Below are positions 2,343 to 48,463 of a DNA stretch of 64,000 bases, in pieces; position 1 is the first letter of the stretch; each line of letters starts with the position of its first letter. The stretch comes from Clostridia bacterium (GTDB taxonomy: Bacteria > Bacillota > Clostridia > Oscillospirales > Acutalibacteraceae): the NCBI GenBank assembly GCA_017522205.1, contig JAFWZS010000079.1, positions 5,928 through 69,927 of the forward strand, read 5' to 3'. Under the pieces are notes generated by a model. The model was not told the DNA's origin, ran no database searches, and worked only from the letters and a program-made list of their open reading frames with translations. The translations under genes were made by a program, and so were the position numbers.

Positions 2343-2589
2343 AAAGTTAAGAGTTAAAAGTTGAAAGTGGAAATGTGGGGAGCAAAGCTCCGATTATATC
2401 CGCTTTTACAAGCTTGAAACGGACAGCTTTATTCCGCCAAATCAGAGTGAAGCCGTAGGGGCGACCATCGGTCGTCCGATCAAAATCAATTCTTTATCCT
2501 ATATAACCTGATTATCTCCGCAGACTATTGCTTCAATTCTACGCAAACATAAATTTGCGACCACTTCTCAACTTTCAACTCTTAACTTT
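2343..2589 (+). repeat. ORF-less palindromic element, copy A (AAAGTT-hexamer arms plus shared core)
   Basis: Arms 2343-2370 (aaagttaagagttaaaagttgaaagtgg) and 2561-2589 (ccacttctcaactttcaactcttaacttt) are inverted repeats. Core motifs ccgattatatcc, tttattccg, gccgtaggggcgaccatcggtcgtccgat and tccgcaga are shared with the copy at 42111-42365. Confidence 0.75.
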
Positions 2590-3059: not shown

Positions 3060-5102
3060 TCATTTTCTTTTTTTCTTTTCATAAAGAACAAGTACCACAA
3101 AAATGAGCATCGAAAAAATACTTATGATTGCTCCCTCTTTGATTCCCGGCACGGTGTAAGACAGTTCAACTTCGTGTTCACCCTCGCTTATCTCAAAGCA
3201 AAGAAGATAGCCTGCCGCCTTTTGTGTGGCAACGCTTTCACCGTCAAGTGTTACACTCCAGCCCTCATCATAGGGAATTGAGAAAAGCATTACACCGTCT
3301 TTTTCAGCTTTTACCGTTCCTTTTATATCGTCGGTATCGAACTCTGTAAGGTTGAAGCCGTTTCTGTGAAGGTAGCTTATAGCTTCATCATAGTTTTCGC
3401 TGCCGCCGCTTACAATAGAATTGAAAAGTGCTTTCTGTGCCTCTTTCCCCTTTTCATATTCTTCAAGGTCGAGGCTTATTACGTCTCCTTCCGAAAGATA
3501 GCCGAGAGGCAGAGCATCTTCATTTACTTTTACGCTGAGACGCTCATTTTCGTTTTCATAGATGAGCTTTTCTTTAAGAATATACTTTATGCCGAAAAGG
3601 TCGTCTGTCATCTGAGTACCTGTGTAATGGGTGCTTACTCTCAGAGCGTAGCGCTCCATTCCGAGATTTTCGAAAAACTTATATGCGTCGGCAGTCATAG
3701 TTGAGGAGTAATAGCATATACCGTTATAGGTGCATTGCTGAGGCAGATTGTTTTTCTTTTCCCCCGTCCACTCCATACGGTAAAAGCCGTCGTCGGCAAT
3801 GCTTTTCTTAACCGTTTCAAATGAGCTTTCATATCTCTGCAGAGAATCAAGACGGCTCGCCCAGGTGTTGCCCTGAAAAACTGTGAAAAAGCTAATCGAA
3901 ACACCTGCAATCGCAACCACCGAAACGGCAGAGAAAAGAGAGTCTTTTTTTAACTTCAGACCTTCTCCGCCCTTTGAAGCAAGGGAAAGAATCAGGAAAA
4001 TTAAAAGAAAGCTCTGTCTTGCAGGAAGCTGATTGGGAAAATGAAAGCCGTGCCAGACAAATTCACCTAAATTTATGCTCATTGAAATAAGCATAAAGAA
4101 GAAAAACAGAAATGAAACAAGTCTTTCCCTTTTCGCTACCTTTTTAAGAAAGAAGAACACCGTCATAAGCACTAAGGCAAAAACCGAGCAGTAGAGATTT
4201 GGTGCTCCGTATTCAAGAGAGATTTTCTGAAAAGGCAAAAACTGACGGAGAAGCTCAAAAAGAGTATATTTAACCTGAATTCCGTCTGTAAATCCAAGGT
4301 CGCTTGCCATTGTAAGGGAAAGTGCTTTTACCGTGGGCAGAAGCACAACGGCTGCTATGCCCCCTGCCACAAGGGATGAAAAGGTGAAAAGCACACCTTT
4401 TTTTATTATGTGGGTGAGTGTGTGCTTTTCTCTGAAAGCAAGGTAGAGAAAATAGAGACAGAGGAAAAGACACACCATATAGCCGATATAAAAGCAGCTC
4501 CATATTGAAAGAAAAAGGGTGATTACATAAAGAACGATTCTGTCTTTTTCCCACAGCTTTTCAAGACCGAGAATCACAAGGGGCAGAAGCATTATAACAT
4601 CTGTCCACATAAGCTGATTTATAAAGGCCAACATATACTGGCTCAAGGCATAAGAAACAGAAAGAGCAGTATAAAGGAAAAACCGTTTGTTGCTGTTTTT
4701 CTCTTTGCCTGTTTTTATAAGATAAAGGGAGAAGAAAAGTCCCGATAGTGCGAATTTAAGAATCACAAGCAAATCTATTGCAACTGCCTGAAAGCTGTGA
4801 GGTACGAGATAAACAAGCAGCCACAAGGGACTGTTGGTATAATAGGCATTCTGCGCCCACAGGTTGAAACCGAGAGCGCCCGAAAAGCTGTAGAAAAGCT
4901 CGCCGTTTCTGATTGCCTCGGTCATATTCATCAGCATGGGATAATACTGTGAAAAGCCGTCCATTGAAATTATGCTTCTTCCTCCGAAGGGTGCAAGCTC
5001 CTTAAAGGCGAAGCTTAAAAGCACCGTAAGCATTGGTATTGTAAAGGAATAAATAAGTATAAGGTGGTTGGTTTTAAGTTTTACCTTTTTCAGAGCTTTC
5101 AC
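3060..5102 (-). CDS. YfhO-family polytopic membrane protein (putative glycosyl transferase/flippase-like)
   Basis: 680 aa with many TM helices and a soluble C-terminal domain. The N-terminus (FGGRSIISMDGFSQYYPML) is typical of the YfhO family. Confidence 0.6.
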   Translation of the reverse strand: MKALKKVKLKTNHLILIYSFTIPMLTVLLSFAFKELAPFGGRSIISMDGFSQYYPMLMNMTEAIRNGELFYSFSGALGFNLWAQNAYYTNSPLWLLVYLVPHSFQAVAIDLLVILKFALSGLFFSLYLIKTGKEKNSNKRFFLYTALSVSYALSQYMLAFINQLMWTDVIMLLPLVILGLEKLWEKDRIVLYVITLFLSIWSCFYIGYMVCLFLCLYFLYLAFREKHTLTHIIKKGVLFTFSSLVAGGIAAVVLLPTVKALSLTMASDLGFTDGIQVKYTLFELLRQFLPFQKISLEYGAPNLYCSVFALVLMTVFFFLKKVAKRERLVSFLFFFFMLISMSINLGEFVWHGFHFPNQLPARQSFLLIFLILSLASKGGEGLKLKKDSLFSAVSVVAIAGVSISFFTVFQGNTWASRLDSLQRYESSFETVKKSIADDGFYRMEWTGEKKNNLPQQCTYNGICYYSSTMTADAYKFFENLGMERYALRVSTHYTGTQMTDDLFGIKYILKEKLIYENENERLSVKVNEDALPLGYLSEGDVISLDLEEYEKGKEAQKALFNSIVSGGSENYDEAISYLHRNGFNLTEFDTDDIKGTVKAEKDGVMLFSIPYDEGWSVTLDGESVATQKAAGYLLCFEISEGEHEVELSYTVPGIKEGAIISIFSMLIFVVLVLYEKKKRK

Positions 5103-5111
5103 CTGCCTTTT

Positions 5112-6431
5112 TTATTTTACAATAACTTCCTTTGATTTCAGGTACTTGTTACACTTGTCCGTACCGCTTTTTACGATAGCCATTGTCCTTTCATAGGAAG
5201 CCTTTGCCTGACTTAAGCCGTCGGTTGATTTGTTAAGTCCCAGCTTTTCAGCCTTGCCGTCCATATTTTTTGAAAGAGGTACTATGTTATATACCTTTTT
5301 TCCGCCTGAGGAGTAAACGTGTACCCAGGTAGGAATGCTTTTTACACTTTCAAAAACGACTTTTCCGTCGCTGTATTTTGAAAAGGTCATTTCAAAAACG
5401 AGACCGTCTTCCGTGTGGCCGGTTTTAAGTCCCATATAGGCTCTGCGCTGATTTGAAAGCACGTTGCCGAGAGAGTATACGCAAACTGTCTTATGCTTTT
5501 TATCTGTTGAAGTGAGAAGGTCAACAGGTTGAACAACGTGGGGATGTCCGCCGATAATTACATCCACTCCCATATCGCAGAGCTTCTGTGCAATTTCCAT
5601 CTGCTTTGCGTTTTGCGTCAGCTGATATTCTTCACCCCAATGAAGATAAACCGTAATAACCTCCGCACCCTTTTTCTTCATTTTTTTCATCTGAGCACTG
5701 AGGTCCTCATAGAAGGGTGCAAGGTTTGAGGGCTTGAACGAATTGATAAGAGGAGCTGTTTTGCTGTCAACGGAAATACCGTTGAGGGATTTTCCGCCTG
5801 ATGACGGTGTTTCAAAGGTATAGCAGACAATGCCGAAATCGATGTCGTTTACCTTTGCAATGAGATACTTCTTATCATCTTCACTCTGTCTTGTACCTGT
5901 GTAAGCAAAGCCTTTTTCCTTAAGTACTTTTTGTGTACGGATAACACCGTCATAGTTTTTGTCAAAGGTGTGGTTATTTGCGGTGAGAAGGCAGTCAACA
6001 CCTGCTTTTTTTAGTGAATCTGCAATCTCGTCGGGTGAATTGAAACGAGGGAAACCGCTGTAGGGCTTGCCTGAGCCCGCAAGAACAGTTTCAAGGTTGG
6101 CTACAAAGTAATCGCTGTCTTCAATAAGAGAATCCGTATAAGTGAAAATGTTGTCGAAGTTGTAGCCGTCAGCCGTTTTTGCTGCATTGAAAATAGGAAT
6201 GTGAATCAGCACGTCACCTGCAGAACGGATTGTTGCCGTTGAGGTGATATGGGGTGGCGGTGGCTCTGTGGTTGTGGGAGCTTCTGTTGTGGTGGTTGGT
6301 GCTGCTGTGGTGGTAGGCTGAATAAAACCCGTATTTTCACCGAGTGTAAGCACCGCACCGAAGGTGAGTATTGCCGCAACAACTGCCAGAATGACAACTA
6401 CGGCAGTTTTGGTAGTATTTTTCTTAGCCAA
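5112..6431 (-). CDS. CapA-family (poly-gamma-glutamate capsule synthesis / metallophosphatase-like) protein, membrane anchored
   Basis: N-terminal TM segment, Thr/Pro linker, then CapA-like blocks (ANLETVL, LLTANNHTFD, GGHPHVVQP). Confidence 0.75.
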   Translation of the reverse strand: MAKKNTTKTAVVVILAVVAAILTFGAVLTLGENTGFIQPTTTAAPTTTTEAPTTTEPPPPHITSTATIRSAGDVLIHIPIFNAAKTADGYNFDNIFTYTDSLIEDSDYFVANLETVLAGSGKPYSGFPRFNSPDEIADSLKKAGVDCLLTANNHTFDKNYDGVIRTQKVLKEKGFAYTGTRQSEDDKKYLIAKVNDIDFGIVCYTFETPSSGGKSLNGISVDSKTAPLINSFKPSNLAPFYEDLSAQMKKMKKKGAEVITVYLHWGEEYQLTQNAKQMEIAQKLCDMGVDVIIGGHPHVVQPVDLLTSTDKKHKTVCVYSLGNVLSNQRRAYMGLKTGHTEDGLVFEMTFSKYSDGKVVFESVKSIPTWVHVYSSGGKKVYNIVPLSKNMDGKAEKLGLNKSTDGLSQAKASYERTMAIVKSGTDKCNKYLKSKEVIVK

Positions 6432-6435
6432 AAAA

Positions 6436-7230
6436 TCATCCCCTAATCTTATGGTTACTTCTTATGGTTATTTCTTCGCTGTAGAGTGTTTTCTCTTCTC
6501 CGTTTTCTGTGAGAATCTGAAGCTGAAGCCGTTCATTTATGCCGAGAACGGTGGCACTGTAAAAGTTTTCCTTTTCTCTTACGGTGATTTCTTCACCCAC
6601 ATAGAGAAGCCTTTTTCTGTATTCCTCAAAAAAGGTCACCTTGGGCATACTATTATAATAAGAGAGAAACTCCCTTAAGAATACTCCCACAAGCCTGTCC
6701 CTTTCAGCGGAAGAAACCTTTTCCTTTAAAGCACCGGCAATATCCTTGATTTCCTCGTTGAAGCCATCCTCAGGCTCAGTCAGGTTTATGCCGATACCTA
6801 CGATAACGTAATCGGTTTTGTCCGAAGATGAAAATGCCGCCTTTGTGAGAATGCCTGCGACCTTTCTGCCGCTAAGGTAAATATCGTTTACCCATTTGAT
6901 ATCAGTTTTCACCGAAAGAACCTCTTCGATTGCCCTTGCCGCCGCAACAGCGGCCATAGGAGTAAGAAGATTGCAGTCCTCCGGCAGAAACGACGGGCGA
7001 AGAAGAATACTCATATAAATTCCGTTGCCCTTTGGCGAGTGGAAGGTTCTGCCCATTCTTCCCTTGCCGCCTGTCTGACTTTCAGAAAGCATAACGGTGA
7101 CTTCTTTTTCACCGTTTCTTGCAAGGTCAGCAAGCTCGTCGTTGGTTGAGGTTACCTCTTCTTCAAAGATAAAACGGACTTTGTTATTATATTGTGAAAG
7201 CTCGTTTCTGATTATCTGTTCGTTATACAT
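6436..7230 (-). CDS. birA: biotin--[acetyl-CoA-carboxylase] ligase (no N-terminal HTH)
   Basis: GGKGRMGRTFHSPKGNGIYMSILLRP biotin/ATP-binding loop; 264 aa. Confidence 0.85.
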   Translation of the reverse strand: MYNEQIIRNELSQYNNKVRFIFEEEVTSTNDELADLARNGEKEVTVMLSESQTGGKGRMGRTFHSPKGNGIYMSILLRPSFLPEDCNLLTPMAAVAAARAIEEVLSVKTDIKWVNDIYLSGRKVAGILTKAAFSSSDKTDYVIVGIGINLTEPEDGFNEEIKDIAGALKEKVSSAERDRLVGVFLREFLSYYNSMPKVTFFEEYRKRLLYVGEEITVREKENFYSATVLGINERLQLQILTENGEEKTLYSEEITIRSNHKIRG

Positions 7231-9729: not shown

Positions 9730-9756
9730 AAAACCGCCTTCGGGCGGTTTTTTTAT
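9728..9756 (+). terminator. intrinsic terminator
   Basis: aaaccgcc-ttcg-ggcggttt followed by T7. Confidence 0.8.
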
Positions 9757-9758
9757 TT

Positions 9759-9971
9759 AGAGTTAAAAGTGGAAAGTTGAAAGTTAAAATAAACCCTTCC
9801 ACCGCTAAAGCGGTCCCCCTTTTCCTCCGGAAACGGGCACCCTTTTGTCTGCTTCGCAGACATTTCCTCTATTAGGGGAAGTACCTTTCAGGGACGGCAA
9901 GGCTAAGGTTATATGATTTTAACGCTTCCTCCGATTGTAGTCGTTTTGAAACCATCTCAACTTAAAACAAC
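9759..9971. repeat. palindromic element, copy B (variant with core motifs in permuted order)
   Basis: Left arm agagttaaaagtggaaagttgaaagttaaaataa and a degenerate right arm ttttgaaaccatctcaacttaaaac. It shares cttcgcagac, cctttcagggacggcaag and ctccgattgtag with copy C, but in a different order. Confidence 0.55.
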
Positions 9972-10012
9972 AGTCCGCCGAGGAGTTAATCTCATTCGGC
10001 GGACTTTCTTTT
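9972..10012 (-). terminator. hairpin terminator (usable in both directions)
   Basis: agtccgccg ...16 nt... cggcggact, with T-runs on both sides. Confidence 0.5.
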
Positions 10013-10354: not shown

Positions 10355-10476
10355 TAATACAACAAGTAAAACAGATATAAGTTTTTTTATTTTATGTTAC
10401 CACCTTTCTATTTCAGGATTTTAACATATTTTACCTGCTTTGTCAGTTTAAAAAGGTCGAGATGGCTTAAATGAAC

Positions 10477-10519
10477 AATGAATAGTACAAAAAGAAAAAG
10501 TCACACTTTCGTGCGACTT
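10477..10519. repeat. 43-bp direct repeat, left copy (duplicate of tRNA-Arg terminator region)
   Basis: aatgaatagtacaaaaagaaaaagtcacactttcgtgcgactt, identical to 11070-11112. Confidence 0.9.
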
Positions 10520-10874
10520 ATTTCTCGTTATTTTTAGCAGTATTAATCGATGAAATCAACATTCGTTTTATTTGAAGGCAATCATTAAGCAAGGACTGGC
10601 CTTCTTTTGCTGATATATATTCAGACATAACAAGTAGTTTTAGCCAGTATTCCGTTTCGGCAGTTTCTTTTAACGCTATGTGCATTTTTGCAATAAAATC
10701 AGCTCTGCTTTGTCCGTAATTGCCTTCGTTTATATTTGCACCAATACTTGTTCCGCTTCGAACAATCTGTTTTGAAATAATTGTTTCTTTATGGTTTTTT
10801 ATGAGATATTTATGTAGCTTTATGATTCTTGAGGCGAAGTAAATTGATTTGTCAATTAAAGCGTTCTCTTTCAT
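10518..10874 (-). CDS. four-helix-bundle protein (23S rRNA intervening-sequence protein / Avd-like family)
   Basis: Hallmark RSGTSIGANINEG...S.ADFIAKMHIALKETAETEYWLKLL; 118 aa. Confidence 0.85.
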   Translation of the reverse strand: MKENALIDKSIYFASRIIKLHKYLIKNHKETIISKQIVRSGTSIGANINEGNYGQSRADFIAKMHIALKETAETEYWLKLLVMSEYISAKEGQSLLNDCLQIKRMLISSINTAKNNEK

Positions 10875-10971
10875 GCGACCAACTCCTTTTTTTACATAAT
10901 AACATAAAAAGCAAGTTAAATCAATCGGTCTGTGCGGACTGTAACTGACTCAATCCACAATGCTGAAGCGC

Positions 10972-11078
10972 CATTATTCATTATTCATCAGCGAAGCGGC
11001 TTCATTATTCATTATTCATTAAGAAAAGTCGCAAGAGTACGAATGAATAATGAATGATGAATAATTAATAATGAATAG
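10972..11078. repeat. ATTCATT-heptamer arm set (two cattattcattattcat units plus inverted gaatgaataatgaatgatgaataattaataatgaatag)
   Basis: 10972-10988 and 11003-11020 are complementary to 11041-11078. The spacer contains a GCTTCGC motif also seen in the hexamer-arm elements. Confidence 0.7.
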
Positions 11079-11112
11079 TACAAAAAGAAAAAGTCACACT
11101 TTCGTGCGACTT
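11070..11112. repeat. 43-bp direct repeat, right copy (includes the tRNA-Arg terminator hairpin)
   Basis: Identical to 10477-10519. The hairpin agtcacac-tttc-gtgcgact plus a T-run on the minus strand lies directly 3' of the tRNA. Confidence 0.9.
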
Positions 11113-11119
11113 TTCTTTT

Positions 11120-11196
11120 TGGCGCGCTGTAAGGGACTCGAACCCCTGACCTACTGGTTCGTAGCCAGTCACTCTATCCAGCTGAGCTAACAGCGC
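11120..11196 (-). tRNA. tRNA-Arg (anticodon ACG)
   Basis: The reverse complement GCGCTGTTAGCTCAGCTGGATAGAGTGACTGGCTACGAACCAGTAGGTCAGGGGTTCGAGTCCCTTACAGCGCGCCA folds as a cloverleaf. The anticodon loop is CT-ACG-AA and CCA is encoded. Confidence 0.9.
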
Positions 11197-27459: not shown

Positions 27460-28777
27460 CGTTTTTCTCCTCTCCCACTTCTTCATTAATAACCTTGCTT
27501 CTGAACGGAGCAGGCAGCCAGTCTGTGTTGCCCCCAAGCTGAAGCTTTGAAAGCACACAGTCAGTTTCCTCAGCATAGCCTCGGACAATATCGTCAGCGA
27601 GAGCTCTGCATGAGGGTGCACCGCAGATTCCGCAGTCAAGGCCGGGAAGTGAGGCTTCAATTTTTTTAAGCTCTGACATCATACGCATAGCTTTTACAAC
27701 ATTGTCGGCAAGCTTAAGTGCCGGTGAGGGTGTAACCTCTTCGGTGAGACTTAACTCTTCAAGTTCATATTCGTTTCTGATGCTGTTGCAGGAAACGGGC
27801 ATAAACTTACGAAGGCGCTGAATTCGTGCCTTTGCCACAAAGGGATTTTCAACCGTAAGCACACCGCCTACGCAGCCGCTTGTGCAGCAGTTAAGCTCAA
27901 TGAAATCAAGGTCATTAAGCTTTTCATCTTCAAGCTCTTCGAGCACATTGATAACGTTTCTTATGCCGTCAGCAGCAAGATATCTTTCCTTTAAAAGACC
28001 TGCTGCTTCACCGCCGCTGCTTGCCCAGCCTACACCGATAATGCCCGAATCATTGATAACCTCAACATCCTCCAGTTTCAGCTTATCCATATTCTGAACA
28101 AGCTGAGGATAGATATCCTTAATTGCAATTGCACCGTCAACGCCGCTTTTACTGTATCCCAAGGGATTTTTAAGTGCCGTTCTTTTTGCAGGGCAGGGTG
28201 AAATGAAGAATACACCGATTTCTTCATCCTTAAGTCCCGTTTCCTTAATTGCTTCTTCACGTGCAATTCTTGCCGCAAAGTCAACGGGCGCAAAAAGCGG
28301 CAGAAGATTAGGGATAAGATTTGGAAAACGGATTCTGATAAGTCTTACAACTGCAGGGCAGGCGGTGGAAATAACCGGCTTTTTAAGTGTGTCGGTTTCC
28401 ATCATCATTCTCGTTGCGCTGCTTATGTATTCAGCCGCCTTGCTGACTTCAACGACCTTGTCAAAGCCCAGCCTTTTAAGTCCCGTCAGCACATAGTCAA
28501 CATTTTCAAGGTTGTTGAACTGACCGTAAAGTGCCGGGGCGGGCAGGGCAATGTTGTATTTATATTTTGTTGTTTCCTCCAGACGCTCCATAACCGCATA
28601 CTTTGCATGCTGAGGACAAACTCTTATGCACTCACCGCAGTCAATGCATCTGTCGGAGATTATGTACGCCTTTTTGTTTCTGACACGGATTGCTTCCGTG
28701 GGGCAACGTTTGATACAGTTTGTGCACCCCACACATTTTTCGTCATCAAGGCGAACTGAGTGGAATATTTTTGCCAT
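27449..28777 (-). CDS. [FeFe]-hydrogenase-like Fe-S protein (2x[4Fe-4S] ferredoxin domain + hydrogenase large-subunit C-terminal-like domain + C-terminal CxxCGxxxC Fe-S domain)
   Basis: CVGCTNCIKRCP / CIDCGECIRVCP ferredoxin motifs. H-cluster-like segments STACPAVV, ISPCPAKR and NCCTSGCVGG. C-terminal LDCGICGAPSCRALA. Confidence 0.7.
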   Translation of the reverse strand: MAKIFHSVRLDDEKCVGCTNCIKRCPTEAIRVRNKKAYIISDRCIDCGECIRVCPQHAKYAVMERLEETTKYKYNIALPAPALYGQFNNLENVDYVLTGLKRLGFDKVVEVSKAAEYISSATRMMMETDTLKKPVISTACPAVVRLIRIRFPNLIPNLLPLFAPVDFAARIAREEAIKETGLKDEEIGVFFISPCPAKRTALKNPLGYSKSGVDGAIAIKDIYPQLVQNMDKLKLEDVEVINDSGIIGVGWASSGGEAAGLLKERYLAADGIRNVINVLEELEDEKLNDLDFIELNCCTSGCVGGVLTVENPFVAKARIQRLRKFMPVSCNSIRNEYELEELSLTEEVTPSPALKLADNVVKAMRMMSELKKIEASLPGLDCGICGAPSCRALADDIVRGYAEETDCVLSKLQLGGNTDWLPAPFRSKVINEEVGEEKNDEG

Positions 28778-28796
28778 TTTGTTTTCTCCTTTTAAT

Positions 28797-29048
28797 CAGA
28801 GTTGAGAGTTGAGATGTGGGTCACTTCGTTCCGATTGTAACCCCTCTGTCATACTGCGTATGACATCTCCCCTTTCAGGGGCGACAAGTTACAGATACCG
28901 TAGGGACCGGCGACCTCGACGGTCAGAATCACAATCTGCTCTTTACCCTATACAACTTGTTTTTCTTCGCAGACTGATGCTTCATTTTTACAGAAGCATA
29001 AACCTGCGTCCTTATTTCAACTTTCTACTTTCCACTTTTTACTTTTTT
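28797..29048 (+). repeat. ORF-less palindromic element, copy C (inside an operon)
   Basis: Arms cagagttgagagttgagatgtgg (left) and ccttatttcaactttctactttccactttttactttt (right). Core motifs are gggtcacttcgttccgattgta, cctttcaggggcgacaag, ccgtaggg and cttcgcagact. Confidence 0.75.
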
Positions 29049-29053
29049 GTGGT

Positions 29054-29479
29054 TTACTCAATATTAACCGAAAGCTTCAGCGTTGTTCCAACACCAAGCT
29101 CAGTTTCAATTTCAAAGCTGTCGCTGTATTTCTTCATATTCGGCAGACCCATACCTGCTCCGAAACCAAGTGAACGGATGTTGTCGGGTGCAGTTGAATA
29201 GCCCTCCTTCATAGCAAGACTTACGTCCGCAATACCGGGGCCTTGGTCTGCGAGAACCATATTTATTTTATCTTCAGTGATTTCAACATCGATTTCACCG
29301 CCGCCTGCGTGAATAACCATATTGATTTCACCCTCATACATGGCAATTGCCACGTTTCTTATAGCATTGGGTGAGATACCCAGCTGCTTCAGAGTGCGCT
29401 TGACATCACCGGAGGCTGCTCCGGCTCTTGTAAAGTCGTCACCCGGCACTACATAGTGAAGCTTTATGCTTTCACTCAT
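29054..29479 (-). CDS. HATPase_c-type ATP-binding protein (anti-sigma-factor-kinase-like)
   Basis: G-box region LGFGAGMGLPNMKKY and GVGTTL; 141 aa. Confidence 0.7.
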   Translation of the reverse strand: MSESIKLHYVVPGDDFTRAGAASGDVKRTLKQLGISPNAIRNVAIAMYEGEINMVIHAGGGEIDVEITEDKINMVLADQGPGIADVSLAMKEGYSTAPDNIRSLGFGAGMGLPNMKKYSDSFEIETELGVGTTLKLSVNIE

Positions 29480-29826
29480 TTTCCGCTGCCTCCACGAAGT
29501 CCTTTTTCATAAAGGCGGCCGCAGGAAGTAAACATTTCAAGCTCAGTGCAGAGCATAACCATATCACGGTCCTCTGCCATTTCAATCATATCAAGTGTAG
29601 GTCTCTTGCCTCTTACAAAAACGATACAGTGCATATCCATCATTTCGGCAGTTCTTACCACCTGAGGATTTACAAGACCTGTAAGAAGAACGGCCTGCTC
29701 TTTTACAAAAGCAAGAACATCGCTCATCATATCGCTTCCGCAGGCAGAATTTACTGCTCTGTCCATAAGGTCGTCACGGCAGATGATTTCTGCCTGAAGA
29801 ATTTCTTTAATGTCGTTTACGGTCAT
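29476..29826 (-). CDS. DRTGG-domain protein
   Basis: Paralogous to 27133-27459 (LLTGLVNPQVVRTAEM.. block). 4-nt overlap with the next gene. Confidence 0.65.
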   Translation of the reverse strand: MTVNDIKEILQAEIICRDDLMDRAVNSACGSDMMSDVLAFVKEQAVLLTGLVNPQVVRTAEMMDMHCIVFVRGKRPTLDMIEMAEDRDMVMLCTELEMFTSCGRLYEKGLRGGSGK

Positions 29827-29847
29827 GATTTTTGTCTCCTTTTTATT

Positions 29848-30490
29848 AAAGTGGAAAGTTAAAAGTTGAAAGTTGAAATAAGGGTCGCTTCGCTCCGATT
29901 ATAGCCGCCTTTATTAAATTATCATTTTTAACTTTTCCCGCCAAATAATATTTGTTTTTTACGGCTCGTCATACTCATCTGTGCCACACATTGTTTTTGT
30001 TGTTGCCATAAGTATTCTTTTAAGCTCAGTGCAATCATTCTTCACAGAACAATATTCTTTTTCGTTTATATACTGAGTTTCATAAAGTAGTTCAAGCCAA
30101 TATAATGTTTCATTGCTTTCTTTAAGCGCAATATATATTTTTGCAAGAAAATCCTTTGAACTCATTGCGCATTCACTTTCTGCTATGTTCGAGCCTATGC
30201 TTGTTCCGCATCTGAGAAGTTGCTTAGATATCACATACTCTTTTTTCTCTTCGGTAAGGTATTTGTAAAGATTTATTATCCTGATAGAAAATTTAATGCT
30301 TTTTTCTTTAGCTACGTTATCTTTCACGTTTTTTTCCTTCCATATCAATTTAATCATTATGTAACCTCATCCGTCAAAAGCTCAATTGCTTCGGCGGAAC
30401 AAAAATGAAAATTCTCAGCCAAGTTGAATCGGGTATAATCGGAACGAAGTGACCCTTATTTCAACTTTTAACTCTCAACTTTCAACTTTT
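29848..30490. repeat. palindromic element, copy E: long inverted arms enclosing a four-helix-bundle gene (candidate autonomous/IVS-like cassette)
   Basis: 29848-29903 versus 30434-30490. The inner 32 nt have 2 mismatches, and the outer part is AAAGTT/GAGTT hexamer repeats. Confidence 0.8.
29959..30357 (-). CDS. four-helix-bundle protein (23S rRNA intervening-sequence protein / Avd-like family)
   Basis: RCGTSIGSNIAESECAMSSKDFLAKIYIALKESNETLYWLELL hallmark; 132 aa. Confidence 0.85.
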   Translation of the reverse strand: MIKLIWKEKNVKDNVAKEKSIKFSIRIINLYKYLTEEKKEYVISKQLLRCGTSIGSNIAESECAMSSKDFLAKIYIALKESNETLYWLELLYETQYINEKEYCSVKNDCTELKRILMATTKTMCGTDEYDEP

Positions 30491-30530
30491 TGTTTACAAA
30501 AAGCAGCCTTTTTAAGGGCCGCTTTTTTAA

Positions 30531-31121
30531 TCAGATATATTTGAAATCGGCCTTTTCGATTTCTTTTTCGATAATGTCAACGGCAAGGTTCCAAACGGTT
30601 TTACCTGCATTCACAAAGCCGTCTTTATTTTTTACTGAGCAAAGCATTGCAAAGGCTTCACCGATATTCTCTGAAAGGTTGCCGCCCTTTTGTACTGCAA
30701 GGTAGTAGAAGGTGAAGGCCGCACCGTTTTTAAGGTTGTCGTAAAAGCCGGGTGATTTCTTTTCAATGCAGTCATACATTGTTGCAATTGCCGTGGTTGT
30801 GATTATTGAAACGGGAATTTCAAACTGAAGCACGGTTTCAGCAGTAAACACAAGAAGCACCTTTATCTGATAGAGAATATCCGAAGCAAAATATCTCGGT
30901 GCAAGGTGATCCTTAAGGTCAACGATTATGCCGTCCTCACCCTTGGGAGTGATTGTTGCAAGAATTTCACCGAGCTTTCTCGCTTTATCAATATTGCCGT
31001 TGAGACGGTGTGTCATAACCTCGTCAAGTGTTCTTGAAATTTCCTTTGCACTGCTGTCAAGGTCATTTTTTGAGTTGTAAATCTTTACATCGTTTTCACT
31101 CATGGTTATCTGTCCAGACAT
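30531..31121 (-). CDS. hypothetical protein
   Basis: 196-aa ORF. No family recognised. Confidence 0.45.
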   Translation of the reverse strand: MSGQITMSENDVKIYNSKNDLDSSAKEISRTLDEVMTHRLNGNIDKARKLGEILATITPKGEDGIIVDLKDHLAPRYFASDILYQIKVLLVFTAETVLQFEIPVSIITTTAIATMYDCIEKKSPGFYDNLKNGAAFTFYYLAVQKGGNLSENIGEAFAMLCSVKNKDGFVNAGKTVWNLAVDIIEKEIEKADFKYI

Positions 31122-32201: not shown

Positions 32202-32909
32202 TTACATATTTCTGAGTAATCTTGCGAGAATATTCAGAAGAAGCTCAGTAAGGCAGCTCTCTTTTCTGTTGTTCATTTCGCGGTAGTCCTCAACCGAGCT
32301 GTCGTCTGCGTCGTCGCTGATTTTTCTTAAAGAAAGCATAGGGATTTCTGCCTTGTCGCAAACGGAAGCAATTGCCGCAGTTTCCATGTCGAAGGCCTCG
32401 ATTCCGAAGCACTCCTTATAGTAATCTTTTTTCACCTTATCTGTGAGGAAAATGTCGCCTGTACCTGTGGGTGCGGCAATAATTCCTTCACTTTGGAGGG
32501 CATAGGAAAGAAGTGTTTCGTCTGCCTTATAGATGTATCTCTGACCGTCTGCCTTTACACCGGGACCGTAGCCGATAGCCGTAAGGTCAAAGTCACATTC
32601 CACGTGGCTTGTTGCAGCAATCATATCCTCTCTTTTAAGACGTGAAACTGCACCTGAAAGTCCTGCGTTGAGGATATAGTCCGCCTTGTCCTCACCGATT
32701 AAATATGCAGTTGCTGCAGCGGCGTTGCTTTTTCCGATTCCGCACTTTACCGCAATAATTTTTATCTTGTTTTCACCTTCAGAAAGAAAGGTTACAACAC
32801 TGTCGTTTCCGTGTCTTTTTTCTTCCCTGTGTTCTTTATCCTTTATTCCCGAAAGAAAAGGTGCATATTCCATTTCATCGGCAAAAATTATGCCAACCGT
32901 CTTTTCCAT
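32202..32909 (-). CDS. mtnN: 5'-methylthioadenosine/S-adenosylhomocysteine nucleosidase family protein
   Basis: PNP/UDP-1 fold blocks (CGIGKSNAAAAT, LNAGLSGA, FDMETAAIASVC). Confidence 0.7.
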   Translation of the reverse strand: MEKTVGIIFADEMEYAPFLSGIKDKEHREEKRHGNDSVVTFLSEGENKIKIIAVKCGIGKSNAAAATAYLIGEDKADYILNAGLSGAVSRLKREDMIAATSHVECDFDLTAIGYGPGVKADGQRYIYKADETLLSYALQSEGIIAAPTGTGDIFLTDKVKKDYYKECFGIEAFDMETAAIASVCDKAEIPMLSLRKISDDADDSSVEDYREMNNRKESCLTELLLNILARLLRNM

Positions 32910-33136
32910 TTTCTTTTTTCTTCCTTTCGCTTCTTTTTCTCTGTTTTATGATTTTACCACAGCTTATGCTCTTATGTCAACGAAATCACGGATGCATAAA
33001 ATAAAATAGGGGGAAATATCCGCCGAACGTTTTTCCGGTGCATTTCTGCCTTGACCTGCCGGAAGCTGCACTTTTAAAAAGGTGTGCGTTCTGCTTAATA
33101 TATATGAGATAAAGTTCATATTTTTCTCAAAATCCA

Positions 33137-37866: not shown

Positions 37867-37950
37867 CTCATTTTTATTATAACTTATGACGGATTTAAAA
37901 TCAAGAGACGGTAAGTTTTTGACATAATAACCTAATATTGTTTAAAACTC

Positions 37951-37979
37951 TTGACAGCACAAAATTTCTATATTAAAAT
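37951..37979 (+). promoter_or_regulatory. sigma-A promoter candidate of dnaA
   Basis: TTGACA-17 nt-TAAAAT, followed by an AT-rich 100 nt. Confidence 0.5.
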
Positions 37980-38080
37980 AGATTAGTGTAACTATTTATA
38001 TTGTATATTTAAATTTAAAGTTATTATATATATAAATAAATATAAGGCGAAAATAAAGAGAAAATTCAGGAGGTTAAACA

Positions 38081-39385
38081 ATGGATTCATTTGCTGAAAT
38101 CTGGCAGGTTGTTCAGGAAGAACTTAAAAACAGCGTTACTGAAGTTGCTTACAAGGTCTGGCTCAGTCCCCTTGAATTTCAGGGCTTCAAAGACGGAAAA
38201 ATTTATCTTTCAATTACCGAATTCAAACGCAAAATCATAATCGACAAATTTTCATATCTCATTGATTCAACCCTGGAAGCCGTTTTCGGTTTTCCCGTTG
38301 AGGTTGAATATGTTGTTCCCGATGAGCAGGTTAAAAACGAAAATTCAAAAAACGAATCATCCTCGGTGAACGATTACAACTACACATTCAAAAATTTCAT
38401 TATCGGCCCGTCAAACAAATTTGCCCACGCTGCTGCGCACAACGTTGCCTGCAGTCCCGGAATGGTCTATAACCCACTTTTCATTTACGGCCATTCAGGT
38501 CTCGGCAAAACCCATCTTCTTCTTGCAATTCAGAATGAAATCAAGGAAAGACGTCCCGACGCAAAGATAATTTATACAAGCGGTGAGCATTTTACAAACG
38601 AGCTTGTTTACTATATCGGTAACCACAACACCCATGCTTTTCACGACAAATACAGAAGCTGCGATGTGCTTTTAGTTGACGACATTCAGTTCATCGCAAA
38701 GGGTGAAACCGTTCAGGAAGAATTCTTCCACACCTTCAATGCACTTAATAGCAGCGGCAGTCAGATTGTTCTTACCTCAGACCGTCCTCCGAAGGAAATG
38801 ATGACCCTTGAAGAAAGACTCCGCACTCGCTTTGAAATGGGTCTTATTGCTGACATTCAGCCTCCCACTCTTGAAACAAGAATGGCAATTGTAAACAAGA
38901 AGTCAGATGATCTGGGGCTTAATCTTCCCGACGATGTTGTAAAGTTCATTGCTGAAAACATCAAGAAAAATATCAGACAGCTTGAGGGTACTGTAAAAAA
39001 AATCAAGGCTTATCAGGATGTTGAGGGTCTTAACCCCAGTCTGAATGTTGCAAAACGTGCAATCAAGGATATTATCAACGACAATAAGCCCTTGGGTGTT
39101 ACAATCGAAAACATTATTAACGAGGTTTCAAGAACCTTTGACGTTTCTGCCGCAGATATCCGTTCAGACAAGAGAAACGCAAACATTTCTCAGGCAAGAC
39201 AAGTTGCAATTTACATTGTTGAACAGGTTACAGGCCTTCCGCTTAAAACAATCGGCAACGAATTCGGAAACAAGCATCACTCAACAATCATCTATGCACT
39301 TAAGGAAATCAATGCAAAGCTTGAAAAAGATGCAGCACTTAAAGCAACTGTTGACGACATAATTAAGAACATAAACGAAAGCTGA
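38081..39385 (+). CDS. dnaA: chromosomal replication initiator protein DnaA
   Basis: Walker A GHSGLGKTHLL, the LLVDDIQF box and the C-terminal DNA-binding helix (HSTIIYALKEI). Confidence 0.95.
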   Translation: MDSFAEIWQVVQEELKNSVTEVAYKVWLSPLEFQGFKDGKIYLSITEFKRKIIIDKFSYLIDSTLEAVFGFPVEVEYVVPDEQVKNENSKNESSSVNDYNYTFKNFIIGPSNKFAHAAAHNVACSPGMVYNPLFIYGHSGLGKTHLLLAIQNEIKERRPDAKIIYTSGEHFTNELVYYIGNHNTHAFHDKYRSCDVLLVDDIQFIAKGETVQEEFFHTFNALNSSGSQIVLTSDRPPKEMMTLEERLRTRFEMGLIADIQPPTLETRMAIVNKKSDDLGLNLPDDVVKFIAENIKKNIRQLEGTVKKIKAYQDVEGLNPSLNVAKRAIKDIINDNKPLGVTIENIINEVSRTFDVSAADIRSDKRNANISQARQVAIYIVEQVTGLPLKTIGNEFGNKHHSTIIYALKEINAKLEKDAALKATVDDIIKNINES

Positions 39386-39386
39386 G

Positions 39387-39542
39387 TTTTCAACAGAGTT
39401 TTTAGTTTTCAACATAAGGTTTTCCACTCTTTTAACACGGGCAGTTTTATAGGTGTTGAAAACCCGATTTTTTCAACAAAAAGATTAACAATAAAAATGG
39501 CTCTGAATCTACAGGAATAAAGGAATTTTAAAGTTTTCCGCA
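39387..39542. promoter_or_regulatory. cluster of DnaA-box-like 9-mers (oriC, dnaA-dnaN spacer)
   Basis: TTTTCAACA at 39387, 39406 and 39470; TTTTCCACT at 39420; inverted TGTTGAAAA at 39454; TTTTCCGCA at 39534. All are 1-3 mismatches from TTATCCACA. Confidence 0.55.
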
Positions 39543-39552
39543 CATTTCACAG

Positions 39553-39600
39553 CCCCTACTACTACTACTATTAATATTCTTATTTATTTTTGATTTTTTC
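39553..39600. promoter_or_regulatory. GC cluster + DnaA-trio-like repeats + AT-rich unwinding tract
   Basis: cccc, then CTA x5 (39556-39570), then TTA ATA, then tcttatttatttttgatttttt. The complement reads 3'-GAT-5' x5. Confidence 0.55.
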
Positions 39601-39616
39601 GAAAGGAATGATTTTT

Positions 39617-40714
39617 ATGAAAATAATCTGCAACAGTGCAGAGCTTTCAAAAGCAGCCGCAAACGTTCAGAGAACAGTATCAGGCAAATCAACAATTCCC
39701 GCCCTTGAGGGTATTCTTATTGAAGCAGAAAACGGAAAGGTAACCCTTACCGGTTATGACCTTGAAGTAGGTTCAGTTATAGTTATTGATGCAGAGGTTG
39801 AAGAAAGCGGAAAGATTATTCTTGCAGCAAAGAATTTCTGCGACATTTTAAGAATGCTTCCCGATGAAACCGTTCTTCTTCAGTGCGATGAAAGAAATAT
39901 CTGCAAAATCAAAAGCGGTGAAACCGACTATTCACTTATCGGCACAGCAGCAAACGAATATCCTGAGCTTCCTTCACTTACAAAGTTCTCACCTGTTAAG
40001 ATGAATCTTAACCTTCTTAAGGATATGATTAAGAGAACCGTTTTCTCAGTTTCAACCGGTGAAAGAAATCCCGTTCATTCAGGTGTAAAGTTTGAAATTG
40101 AAGAAAATAAAATTGTTCTTGTTGCCGTTGACGGTGCAAGACTTGCAATAAGAAGAGAAACAATTGAAAGAACAGAAGAAGAAATTCTTAATTTTGTTGT
40201 TCCCGCAAAAACTCTCAATGAGGTTCTTAAGCTGAACGCTGACGAAGAAGCAGAAATTGAAATTCTTGTTGGGGACAGACACCTTATTTTCAAAATGGAA
40301 AACTATGAAATTGTTTCAAGACTTCTTGAAGGTAATTTCATTAACTATAAGTCTGCAATTCCTATGACATCTTCAACAAGAGTTGTGGCTGACACAAGAA
40401 GACTTATTGAATGCATCGAAAGAACTTCACTTATTATTACTGACCGTTCAAGCCCCGTTCGTCTTGTTGTTGATGAGGGTATTATGAAGTTTTCATCAGT
40501 AACTGCAATCGGTACTGCAACAGACAAGATGATTGCTGACATTGACGGCAGCAAGATTGAAGTAGGCTTCAATAACCGTTTCCTTATTGATGCTCTTAAG
40601 GCTACAGAGCAGGAAGAAATCAAAATTGAATTTGGTTCATCAAATCAGCCTATTATTGTGAAACCCTTAGAGGGTGAAGCATTCTTCTATCTTGTATTAC
40701 CCGTAAGAATTTAA
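39617..40714 (+). CDS. dnaN: DNA polymerase III beta sliding clamp
   Basis: MKIICNSAELSKAAANVQR... typical DnaN. ATG 39617 follows a GAAAGGA RBS. Confidence 0.95.
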   Translation: MKIICNSAELSKAAANVQRTVSGKSTIPALEGILIEAENGKVTLTGYDLEVGSVIVIDAEVEESGKIILAAKNFCDILRMLPDETVLLQCDERNICKIKSGETDYSLIGTAANEYPELPSLTKFSPVKMNLNLLKDMIKRTVFSVSTGERNPVHSGVKFEIEENKIVLVAVDGARLAIRRETIERTEEEILNFVVPAKTLNEVLKLNADEEAEIEILVGDRHLIFKMENYEIVSRLLEGNFINYKSAIPMTSSTRVVADTRRLIECIERTSLIITDRSSPVRLVVDEGIMKFSSVTAIGTATDKMIADIDGSKIEVGFNNRFLIDALKATEQEEIKIEFGSSNQPIIVKPLEGEAFFYLVLPVRI

Positions 40715-41023: not shown

Positions 41024-42112
41024 ATGAATGTTACTGAACTTGAAGTAAGAAATTTCCGCAACATAAAAGAGGCACACATTGAACCTCACAGCGGTGTAAA
41101 CGTATTTTTCGGCGAGAATGCTCAGGGAAAAACAAACCTTCTTGAAAGCATCTGGCTTTTTACCGGTTGCCGTTCTTTCAGAAGCTCAAAGGACAGTGAG
41201 CTGATTAATTTTAACAGCACAAAAGCTGAGCTTTCAATGGACTTTGAAGCCTGGAACAGAAAGCAGGAAGCCCACCTTGAAATAGGGGAGGGAAGAAAAT
41301 TTCTTCTTTCCGGTGTAAAGAAAAGCACCACACAGTTTATGGGCGAATTTCTTGCGGTTGTTTTTTCTCCCGTTCATCTTTCTCTTATTAAAGACGGTCC
41401 TTATGAAAGGCGCAGATTCGTTGACACGGCAATAAGTCAGCTGAAACCTAAATATGCGGCATCACTTGCTCAGTATAATAAAGCAATCCAGCAGAGAAAT
41501 GTGCTTTTAAAGGATCTTGTCTATCATTCTGAATTATATGACACTCTGGATGTATGGGAAGACAGAATTGCTTTTTTTGCTTCGGAAATTATCCGTCAGA
41601 GAATAGGCTACATCAACAAGCTTTCCCAGTATACCGATGAAATATACAGAGGACTTTCTTCAGGAAAAGAAAAGCTCAGTATAAGCTATAATCAGCAGAC
41701 TGTTGTTTTTGGTGACAGTAAGCAGGAGCTTTATGAAAATATGAAGGCTCAGCTTTTTGCCTCGAGAAAAAATGATATTATCTGCGGTTACACAACCGTA
41801 GGTCCTCACAGAGACGACATAAATGTTGAAATTGACGGTCTTGCGGCAAAAAGCTTCGGTTCTCAGGGTCAGCAACGCTCTGCCGCCCTTTCAATGAAGC
41901 TGGGTGAAGCCGCAGTTGTAAAGAATTTTTCCGACGAGCAGCCCGTTGCACTTCTGGATGATGTAATGAGCGAGCTTGATAAAGGGAGACAGAATTATAT
42001 TCTCAATCACATAAAGGACTGGCAGGTGTTTATTACCTGCTGCGACCCCTTAGCCGTTGAAGGTCTTAAATCGGGTAAAAAGTTTGAGATGAAAAACGGA
42101 CGCATTTATTAA
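41024..42112 (+). CDS. recF: DNA replication and repair protein RecF
   Basis: Walker A GENAQGKTNLLE, the SQGQQRSAALSMKL signature and LLDDVMSELD. Confidence 0.9.
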   Translation: MNVTELEVRNFRNIKEAHIEPHSGVNVFFGENAQGKTNLLESIWLFTGCRSFRSSKDSELINFNSTKAELSMDFEAWNRKQEAHLEIGEGRKFLLSGVKKSTTQFMGEFLAVVFSPVHLSLIKDGPYERRRFVDTAISQLKPKYAASLAQYNKAIQQRNVLLKDLVYHSELYDTLDVWEDRIAFFASEIIRQRIGYINKLSQYTDEIYRGLSSGKEKLSISYNQQTVVFGDSKQELYENMKAQLFASRKNDIICGYTTVGPHRDDINVEIDGLAAKSFGSQGQQRSAALSMKLGEAAVVKNFSDEQPVALLDDVMSELDKGRQNYILNHIKDWQVFITCCDPLAVEGLKSGKKFEMKNGRIY

Positions 42113-42365
42113 AAGTTGAAAGTTTAAAGATAAAAGTTGAAATAAGGTCGCATCTTTATTTCTCTGCAAACTTAAAACGATATTCTGCGGAATTTATTTG
42201 AGCATTAAAGGTAAAAAAGTAAATTTTAATCGGACGACCGATGGTCGCCCCTACGGCATCAATCTGCTCAGTCGGAATAAATATAAAAAATTTGATACTA
42301 AGTTGAAACGGATATAATCGGAACGAAGTGACCCTTAATTCAACTTTTAACTTTCAACTTTAAAA
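42111..42365 (-). repeat. ORF-less palindromic element, copy D (inverted orientation relative to copy A)
   Basis: Arms 42111-42150 and about 42322-42365. The reverse complement carries gggtcacttcgttccgattatatccg, tttattccg, gccgtaggggcgaccatcggtcgtccgat and tccgcaga in the same order as copy A. Confidence 0.8.
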
Positions 42366-42385
42366 AAATCCGGAGGATTTTTATT

Positions 42386-42640
42386 ATGTATCTACATTTA
42401 GGACAAAGTACGGTCATAACTCACGATGAAATAATAGGAATCTTTGACCTTGACAACACCACAGTTTCAAAAAAGACAAGAGACTATCTTTCAAAAGCAG
42501 AAAAAGAGGGCAGGGTAAACGTTGTTTCTTATGAACTGCCGAAATCCTTTATCGTATGTGGAGAAAAAGGAAATCAGAAGGTTTATCTGTCTCAGATTTC
42601 CACATCAACCCTTTTAAAAAGAACAGAAGAAAACTTCTGA
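42386..42640 (+). CDS. remB: DUF370 / RemB(YaaB)-like protein
   Basis: MYLHLGQSTVITHDEIIGIFDLD..., in the conserved recF-gyrB position. Confidence 0.75.
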   Translation: MYLHLGQSTVITHDEIIGIFDLDNTTVSKKTRDYLSKAEKEGRVNVVSYELPKSFIVCGEKGNQKVYLSQISTSTLLKRTEENF

Positions 42641-42653
42641 TTTAAATTATAAA

Positions 42654-42676
42654 TTATTCATCATTCATTATTCATT
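42654..42676. repeat. isolated ATTCATT-heptamer arm
   Basis: ttattcatcattcattattcatt, the same repeat unit as 10972-11020. Confidence 0.5.
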
Positions 42677-42695
42677 AAAAATGTAGGAGGTATGA

Positions 42696-48327: not shown

Positions 48328-48402
48328 AAGAAGAGTTGAGAGTTAAGAGTTAAGATGTGGGGCTTCGCCGATTATATCCATCTTAACCAACAGCAACTCT
48401 TT
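48328..48402 (+). repeat. minimal palindromic element, copy F
   Basis: aagaagagttgagagttaagagttaagatgtgg + ggcttcgccgattatatcc + atcttaaccaacagcaactcttt. It starts at the nucleotide after the gyrA stop. Confidence 0.6.
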
Positions 48403-48463
48403 ACCCTTGTTGACCGATTATTTTGCATTTTGCATTTTGTATTTATATAAAGGATTGATATAA

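Follow-up and report, generated by a model that had tools for sequence, protein, structure and literature searches.

The window analyzed here, a 64-kb stretch (64,000 nucleotides) of contig JAFWZS010000079.1 from a Clostridia bacterium of the Oscillospirales (Acutalibacteraceae), carries at positions 29848-30490 a gene for a four-helix-bundle (4HB) protein enclosed by inverted arms of tandem 7-nt repeats. The open reading frame (ORF) lies on the minus strand (29959-30357), encodes 132 amino acids and matched the S23p family in profile hidden Markov model searches with both PF05635 (Pfam; E 4.6e-29, 101.2 bits against a cutoff of 33.8) and TIGR02436 (107.2 bits, cutoff 24). Its residues 9-123 were homologous by sequence comparison to the solved 4HB structure PDB 2RLD (E 1.6e-39). 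A preliminary description of this DNA, made from the letters alone, had named a minus-strand 4HB gene, and all three matches agreed with it.

The inverted arms, 29848-29907 and 30430-30489, were 88% complementary over 60 nt and enclose the ORF as described. The earlier count of two differences in the inner 32 nt was reproduced; the two positions are the covarying R/Y pair of a 22-nt core (GGGTCRCTTCGYTCCGATTRTA), which occurred four times in the window compared to 0.00 occurrences expected by chance. The outer repeats, previously taken for hexamers, had a period of 7. The repeat unit is the heptamer ARAGTTR, and the pattern AAAGTTGAAAGTTRAAAGTT gave 17 matches (0.07 expected) with a start-to-start spacing of 7, each arm consisting of about five tandem heptamers and the core.

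Read in the sense of the ORF, the element begins with the upstream arm (30456-30490, minus strand), about five heptamers (AAAAGTTG AAAGTTG AGAGTTA AAAGTTG AAATAA) that pair with 29848-29881, followed by the 5' copy of the core, GGGTCACTTCGTTCCGATTATA, located by motif search at 30434-30455 (minus strand). The leader from core to ORF (30358-30433, minus strand) bears the TCCG...CCGCC signature of the 5' module, matched by nhmmer at 30457-30385, and a GAGG 8 nt before the ATG. The trailer after the stop codon (29904-29958, minus strand) is, on the plus strand, the leader of a second, inverted 5' module (nhmmer match 29880-29950, plus strand). It is followed by the second, inverted core GGGTCGCTTCGCTCCGATTATA (29882-29903, plus strand), whose pairing with 30434-30455 lengthens the stem to about 60 bp, and by the downstream arm (29848-29881, plus strand), again about five heptamers (AAAGTGG AAAGTTA AAAGTTG AAAGTTG AAATAA). 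According to nhmmer and to a comparison with another ORF-bearing copy (L025, see below), the window ORF copy is a variant with an inverted 5' module in place of the 3' module, which doubled the length of its stem. The 659-nt ORF-sense RNA folded with a minimum free energy of -176.7 kcal/mol (shuffled sequences, -122.8 +/- 5.1; z = -10.55), and a closing stem of about 64 bp was predicted around the ORF.

The cassette is flanked by co-oriented genes, as are most of its relatives, and its downstream arm stops a few nucleotides from the ribosome-binding site (RBS) of a DRTGG gene starting at 29826. At gathering thresholds, an Rfam 15 scan of the window returned only a tRNA, with no rRNA and no other described RNA family, and a permissive scan of 28700-30600 gave only a chance MIR390 match (E 0.55). 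With protein-coding genes on both sides, the element is located outside rRNA, as had been proposed.

Proteins 83-88% identical to the window ORF product were encoded at the same locus in related species, in the order PHP gene, gene for a 190-amino-acid protein, 4HB gene, DRTGG, HATPase, and Fe-hydrogenase-like gene. The ratio of nonsynonymous to synonymous substitution (dN/dS) between these orthologues was 0.07-0.11 at dS 0.9-1.45, and by this measure the 132-amino-acid protein is under strong purifying selection. Arm-plus-core segments were 86-96% identical among orthologues, with 53-55 of 57 nt of the downstream arm identical in two of the loci (L236 and L237), and the leader and trailer were unalignable. 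In these alignments, the protein and the arms were thus shown to be conserved far above the neutral expectation; the arms of the window copy are either maintained or homogenized against other copies. Since the same locus is occupied in related species at dS of about 1, the window ORF copy is old and not a recent insertion.

The core-and-heptamer family in Oscillospirales

The core motif was found in more than 115 stretches of species-level metagenome-assembled genomes (MAGs) from gut and rumen, labeled Acutalibacteraceae, Oscillospiraceae, 'Eubacterium', and Ruminococcus, and the interspersed family suspected from the window alone was thereby recovered across many species. About four tandem heptamers preceded the core in every copy, and the unit varied from copy to copy (AAAGTTG, AGTGTGG, AATTACG, AATGCAA, AATGAAT, AATTCGG, GTGGCTC, AGTTAGG, and more). 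In 50 of 125 copies, a downstream stretch was complementary to the copy's own left arm at 24 or more of 32 positions. The arms are complementary within each copy despite the differing heptamers, which amounts to arm-to-arm covariation on a large scale.

By size, the copies fell into a minimal class of about 113-121 nt, an intermediate class of 142-154 nt, the commonest class of about 230-300 nt, and an ORF-bearing class of 600-760 nt. The ORF was present in only about 3 of about 120 core-bearing copies, ORF-less copies being some 40 times more numerous. In one ORF-bearing copy (L025), a PF05635 ORF lay between AATGCAA-type arms, and both the 5' module (core and TCCG...CCGCC leader) and the 3' module (TGCGG...CCGCGACC) were those of ORF-less copies. 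Because both modules are shared, ORF-less copies look like internal-deletion derivatives of ORF-bearing elements. At 1015-1790 of L025, a 5' module and the first approximately 15 codons of the 4HB ORF were directly followed by a complete ORF element with the same arms, a tandem partial duplication.

Rearranged copies were also observed. L044 was chimeric, with a left arm of AATTAAG units and a right arm complementary to GTGGCTC, and L116 was likewise chimeric with non-complementary arms. In L047, a 2.45-kb segment (4242-6696) with two genes, by eye metallophosphoesterase-like and VanY-like peptidase, lay between two inverted 5' modules and was nested in another heptamer hairpin, of which L024 had the outer right half only. 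Most contigs with close ORF homologs were shorter than 2 kb and several contigs from the species of the window ended about 90 nt after the ORF, which indicates that assemblies break at the arms; the elements are probably under-represented in MAGs.

Covariation among copies was tested by two approaches and was positive in both. RNAalifold on 16 copies gave 20 stem pairs with compensatory double changes. A hand-built structure was scored on 18 'type-1' ORF-less copies (alignment A3; nhmmer and hand-scored pairs), where 83.8% of cells were paired compared to 38-48% when the partners were slid by 1-3 columns, and 31 pairs changed on both sides; 0 of 500 shuffles reached the observed values. Apart from the heptamer stem, the structure comprises a core mini-hairpin with a covarying closing pair (A-U in nine copies, G-C in eight), an interior helix in which GATTRTATCCGT pairs with ACGGATAAAATC, a CCGCC/GGCGG helix, and a 3' hairpin (CGCAG...CTGCG) that encloses a further covarying stem. 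G.U pairs were numerous in the interior helices, for example in 13 of 18 copies at one position, and the fold is therefore assigned to the ORF-sense strand only. A pairing of GGGTCRC with the 3' GCGACC was rejected, as it placed A.C at R in all GGGTCAC copies; R covaries with Y inside the core. The strand bias of mismatches in the heptamer stem was also tried as a means of deciding between RNA and DNA, and none was present (G.T 39, A.C 43).

Comparison of flanks in related species revealed both filled and empty orthologous sites, which the preliminary description had suggested looking for. A 118-nt element was located about 10 nt upstream of an RBS in L118, with the orthologous site empty in L119; L057 and L102 each had a 276-nt copy where the other had none, and L055 was filled where both were empty. 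Only an 18-nt heptamer scar was left in L100 at the site of a full copy in L015. Other orthologous copies were kept between species (L052/L074, L050/L077, and L064/L106). Five filled/empty comparisons were usable at the junction: one insertion was flanked by GAAAG with 29 extra nucleotides including a terminator-like hairpin, one by TT with 9 extra nucleotides, and the others were ambiguous. No fixed-length target-site duplication was found at these junctions, which were imprecise and thus argue against a classical transposase that recognizes terminal inverted repeats (TIRs) and cuts defined inverted ends.

Heptamer arms in other phyla and in known systems

PF05635 genes of other lineages carried inverted heptamer arms without the 22-nt core. 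Such arms were present in all three of a Methylomusa anaerophila chromosome, a Dysgonamonadaceae contig, and a type III restriction-modification (R-M) system with the PF05635 gene placed between mod and res. They were also found in 46 of 77 metagenome loci under strict conditions (at least 22 of 28 positions complementary and period 7), with about 20 more showing weaker arrays, in 13-14 of 19 viral contigs, down to 38% protein identity, and in 9-10 of 11 isolate plasmid loci (Nostoc punctiforme PCC 73102, other Nostoc, Dolichospermum, Euhalothece, Bernardetia, Treponema, and Chlorohelix). Period-7 arrays occurred at 2.44 per kb within 200 nt of PF05635 ORFs and at 0.27 per kb elsewhere in the same loci, a 9-fold difference. 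The sample covered at least five phyla (Bacillota, Bacteroidota, Cyanobacteriota, Spirochaetota, and Chloroflexota), with Pseudomonadota represented only by the published Coxiella intervening sequence (IVS).

The arms had a median of about five units (range 3.6 to more than 20), and C made up 2.8% of the upstream arm and G 2.7% of the downstream arm relative to the ORF. More than 20 different heptamer units stood beside proteins 55-65% identical. The upstream neighbor was co-oriented with the PF05635 gene in 29 of 31 loci, and the host operons included carA-carB, glpK with a glpD-like gene, hbd-ack, an ABC transporter pair, and mod-res. In L244 (Anabaena cylindrica pANACY.01), L126-L131, L137, and L248, the 4HB genes lay between the cas2 and cas1 genes, in type III R-M systems between mod and res, or between a helicase-related gene and an N6-methylase gene. 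Defense loci seem to be frequent hosts of 4HB genes; PADLOC has no model for the 4HB protein and returned no match for either of the two 4HB proteins of the window. In L250 (Nostoc sp. UHCC 0870), the arms were perfectly complementary over 21 nt and the heptamer period was broken in both by an insert of about 25 nt, which we take to resemble the small dispersed repeats that have been described for Nostoc. What looked like a 23S motif in L086 was dismissed as a chance 14-mer.

The closest described counterpart is the IVS of Coxiella burnetii 23S rRNA, a helix-45 element of 428 nt that carries an S23p ORF and has a terminal stem of 28 bp. In this IVS, two or three tandem GACAGAT heptamers and a degenerate one, their number varying by strain, stand just upstream of the start codon, and RNase III cuts the stem at the first heptamer (Warrier et al., 2016; PMC4990558). 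The same study cites the Xanthomonas S23p structure as a homopentameric toroid (PMC4990558), and PDB 2RLD has five chains. Like the 23S IVSs of Coxiella and also Leptospira, the window element has a PF05635 protein encoded in the loop of a long terminal stem; with the Coxiella IVS it further shares tandem heptamers of variable number in the stem upstream of the start codon, and by analogy it would likewise depend on a host transcript. It differs in being located between protein-coding genes and not in helix 25 or 45 of rRNA, in a stem of about 60 bp, twice that of Coxiella because the 22-nt core is also inverted, in an ORF under strong purifying selection compared to a decaying one in Coxiella, and in the abundant ORF-less derivatives of its family.

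Cyanobacterial short tandemly repeated repetitive (STRR) elements consist of 7-bp repeats forming hairpins between genes such as hupS-hupL, with suggested roles in transcript stability or translational coupling (PMC2670836). They resemble the window family in the tandem 7-bp units of their inverted, hairpin-capable intergenic arrays, and STRR-like heptamer arrays bracketed the PF05635 genes on Nostoc, Dolichospermum, and Euhalothece plasmids. The STRR papers examined described the repeats without a link to a 4HB gene. STRR sequences belong to another phylum and use other units, whereas Oscillospirales copies add a conserved core and a folded interior. Vioque is said to have reported in 1997 that STRR sequences also occur inside the gene for RNase P RNA. 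A literature search of incomplete coverage on the 4HB family brought up only the Coxiella IVS paper and a review of diversity-generating retroelements, and no paper was found that links the 4HB family to heptamer arms generally or describes such cassettes in operons.

The ORF-less copies are short, non-coding, multicopy, and intergenic, with inverted ends and filled/empty polymorphism, as are miniature inverted-repeat transposable elements (MITEs), repetitive extragenic palindromic (REP) sequences and bacterial interspersed mosaic elements (BIME), Correia elements (Correia repeat enclosed elements, CREE), repeat units of pneumococcus (RUP), and BOX elements. Co-transcription and cleavage by RNase III are known for some small palindromic repeats, for example Correia elements. 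Unlike MITEs, the ends are variable heptamers and not conserved TIRs, the full relatives encode a 4HB protein and not a transposase, and no fixed target duplication could be made out among the junctions compared. Avd of diversity-generating retroelements (DGRs) has a homologous 4HB fold and is a pentamer; we know of no Avd genes reported with heptamer arms, and unlike a DGR, the window had neither a reverse transcriptase (Pfam) nor a pair resembling template and variable repeats (repeat search). Drosophila Foldback elements have inverted arms of short tandem repeats in variable number, with an internal gene in some and none in most. Foldback is eukaryotic with much longer arms, and the likeness is an analogy with no homology implied.

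Family members and genes elsewhere in the window

A search of the window with an nhmmer profile of the element returned three full ORF-less copies, at 2375-2564 (+), 28816-29014 (+), and 42336-42143 (-). It also recovered the pair of 5' modules serving as arms of the ORF element, together with two weak copies, one at 9924 (+) and one at 48359 (+). Of the five or more further ORF-less sites noted earlier, three were therefore clear copies and the remaining two were only weak. The first full copy (2339-2592, +; E 1.8e-39) had a variant core, GGGGAGCAAAGCTCC, in a fully paired hairpin. The second (28798-29050, +; E 2.5e-34) consisted of arms, core, and folded interior and was located between the HATPase gene and the Fe-hydrogenase-like gene, antisense to their operon. 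The third (42105-42370, -; E 3.6e-41) lay between recF and a small gene upstream of gyrB, its left arm adjoining the RBS of the gene starting at 42387. The copy at 9756-10010 (+; weak, E 2e-4) was divergent or rearranged, with a heptamer array and a core-like CTTCCTCCGATTGTA about 170 nt further on, and the short copy after gyrA (48330-48449, +) was chimeric, with a left arm of (AGAGTTR)n and degenerate core and a right array of (GCATTTT)n that is not complementary to it.

A second cassette at 10470-11082 (-) carried a PF05635 gene for 118 amino acids (10518-10874, 105.3 bits) between (AATGAAT)n-type arrays beside a tRNA-Arg gene. It was bracketed by a 50-nt direct repeat (10470-10519 and 11063-11112, 96% identical) containing two heptamers and a terminator hairpin, with tRNA-Arg at 11120-11196 (-); the repeat could be a long target duplication or a trace of recombination-based insertion. 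A solo (ATTCATT)n heptamer array (42653-42685) was found directly upstream of the gyrB RBS. In total, the window held 14 period-7 arrays compared to 0-2 in shuffled sequences, and 13 of them fell at the copies, cassettes, or solo arrays listed, the exception being 32902-32926.

No transposase, integrase, reverse transcriptase, or HUH gene was present in the 64-kb window, which was covered by Pfam tables of matching contigs for approximately 1-40 kb and by direct Pfam scans for 40-64 kb; the absence reported before thus holds for its whole length. The genes from 40 to 64 kb were recF, gyrB, gyrA, gidA, gidB, parA/B, serS, and similar. Within 37900-40714, an AT-rich palindromic stretch (37993-38034) is followed by dnaA (38081-39385) and dnaN, and the cumulative GC skew had its minimum near 38-40 kb, which indicates that the window spans the replication origin. 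An exact-protein look-up with gyrA gave no match. Strains with a protein identical to that of the iron-containing alcohol dehydrogenase gene (L212, L214, and L215) diverged exactly within its terminator; downstream of the gene (window 9730 onward), L215 had a large serine recombinase and others had radical-SAM genes. This island varies among strains and has no relation to the heptamer elements, and the strain comparison there showed only the serine-recombinase island and no informative empty site. Nor was a clean empty site obtained by comparing L066 with the window, as synteny breaks there.

Interpretation of the cassette and its derivatives

The locus is probably an intact IVS-type hairpin cassette outside rRNA, accompanied by MITE-like ORF-less derivatives. 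The likeness to the stem-encloses-ORF layout of 23S IVSs, already pointed out in the preliminary description, was borne out by the same anatomy in the Coxiella IVS (PMC4990558). Its comparison with an autonomous/non-autonomous, MITE-like pair stood for the ORF-less derivatives and the filled/empty sites; the pairing itself is an analogy only, in which mobilization by the 4HB protein is hypothetical. Under this reading, the cassette would have no promoter itself, and its expression would come from read-through of the upstream gene. RNase III would cut the heptamer stem, as in the architecturally identical Coxiella 23S IVS, setting free the loop RNA with its ORF and parting the flanking cistrons while leaving them intact. 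Excision of this kind would be harmless and may explain how rRNA helices and operons such as carAB and dnaA-recF-gyrB-gyrA can accommodate the elements. Variation in copy number and homogeneity within arrays suggest that the arrays evolve by slippage, and ORF-less derivatives would have spread, or been lost, in Oscillospirales.

Several observations weigh against this interpretation. RNase III cutting and read-through expression are proposed from architecture, context, and the Coxiella precedent, and the 7-nt period is not accounted for by RNase III biology. Since G.T and A.C mismatches showed no bias, an RNA-level constraint does not follow from the arms alone. The window ORF copy is vertically inherited, and mobility of its own is at most putative. 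The ORF-less copies stand in both orientations to their tandem neighbors (++ 38, -- 27) although the interior folds in the ORF sense only, so that many of them are unable to serve as sense RNA within host transcripts. The interior fold may accordingly be a property of a copy-making intermediate rather than of each resident copy.

Four other explanations were weighed. A putative reading of the heptamers by the 4HB protein as a pentamer, the form of its solved relatives, with each 7-nt unit bound as single-stranded RNA or DNA by one subunit much as HutP or TRAP would do, appears somewhat unlikely, and so does the corollary, compatible with the IVS-type cassette, that such a protein would autoregulate the cassette, control neighboring genes through the ORF-less copies, or mobilize these copies. 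The putative match of a pentamer (the five chains of PDB 2RLD and the Xanthomonas S23p homopentamer, PMC4990558) with a median of about five repeats per arm fits the numbers, and the near-universal linkage of PF05635 genes to heptamer arrays across phyla, the strong purifying selection on the protein, and arms that often adjoin an RBS point the same way. However, with more than 20 units beside proteins 55-65% identical, sequence-specific reading would need rapid co-evolution, and array length varies from 3.6 to more than 20 units. The ORF-less copies of the window use the units of its resident ORF cassettes (AAAGTTG of the first, AATGAAT of the second), a match within the genome that is also expected from common descent. 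A host-serving role of the ORF-less elements as structured RNAs or as signals in mRNA (stabilizer, insulator, terminator, or processing site between cistrons), with the elements selected at their sites and not selfish, is improbable. The conserved, covarying interior helices with their numerous G.U pairs, a 22-nt core identical across many species, orthologous copies retained between species, placement immediately behind stop codons or terminators and a short way upstream of an RBS, and the proposals made for STRR sequences (PMC2670836) would agree with such a role; the occurrence of both orientations relative to host genes, the invasion of unrelated operons, presence/absence differences, scars, solo arms, chimeric arms, and the lack of any Rfam family match do not.

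The ORF-less copies might instead be MITEs of a conventional DNA transposon or REP/IS200-like single-strand hairpin elements, mobilized in trans by a transposase or HUH enzyme from another part of the genome, with the 4HB gene as cargo, which we regard as distinctly improbable. Their inverted terminal repeats, small size, high copy number, and filled/empty sites, and the arm mismatches without strand bias, are consistent with this, as is the bottom strand of the core, GCGAAGC or ACGAAGT with covarying closing bases, which we take to be a very stable DNA mini-hairpin. The outermost heptamers are variable and the conserved core is internal, the opposite of end recognition by a transposase. Target-site duplications were inconsistent (GAAAG once and TT once, with 9-29 extra nucleotides), the 64-kb window lacks any transposase, reverse transcriptase, integrase, or HUH gene, and PF05635 genes of other phyla have heptamer arms without a shared core. 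Highly improbable, finally, is a portable outward promoter in the 5' module, in which GATTRTA would serve, read on the opposite strand, as a -10 box (TAYAAT) for the gene adjoining the arm. Two sites scoring 10 of 12 use the TATAAT of the core (29925-29898, -; 30412-30439, +), and in three window copies the left arm stands beside the RBS of a gene reading away. This candidate was rejected, as the scan did not exceed chance (9 sites, 5.2 +/- 2.0 expected) and the type-1 consensus (A3) has no conserved -35 box at 16-18 nt; many copies face the 3' end of the neighboring gene, and GATTRTA is also accounted for as one strand of helix 3.

Beyond the IVS-type cassette of the window, PF05635 genes and tandem-heptamer hairpins may tentatively, though this is less likely than not, be seen as one ancient, phylum-spanning class of elements that would unite 23S IVSs, STRR hairpins, and operon cassettes. 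The pentameric 4HB protein would read its own arrays, and spread and the spawning of ORF-less copies would proceed without a transposase, for example via a single-stranded ORF-sense intermediate with the G.U-rich fold.

About 30 years after the 23S IVSs with their S23p ORFs became known, their origin, mobility, and function are still unexplained, as are those of STRR hairpins. Our results indicate that both appear to belong with a far larger population of cassettes in ordinary operons, even in the dnaA-gyrA cluster, accompanied in gut and rumen Oscillospirales by large ORF-less families. The elements are relevant to the annotation and assembly of gut MAGs, where contigs break at heptamer repeats, and to operon expression, as they sit on RBS-proximal sequence. 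What was an rRNA curiosity becomes a general, testable system with a selected protein, a heptamer array as its likely ligand, RNase III as the predicted processor, and filled and empty sites. The association of PF05635 genes with heptamer arms across phyla is of broader interest.

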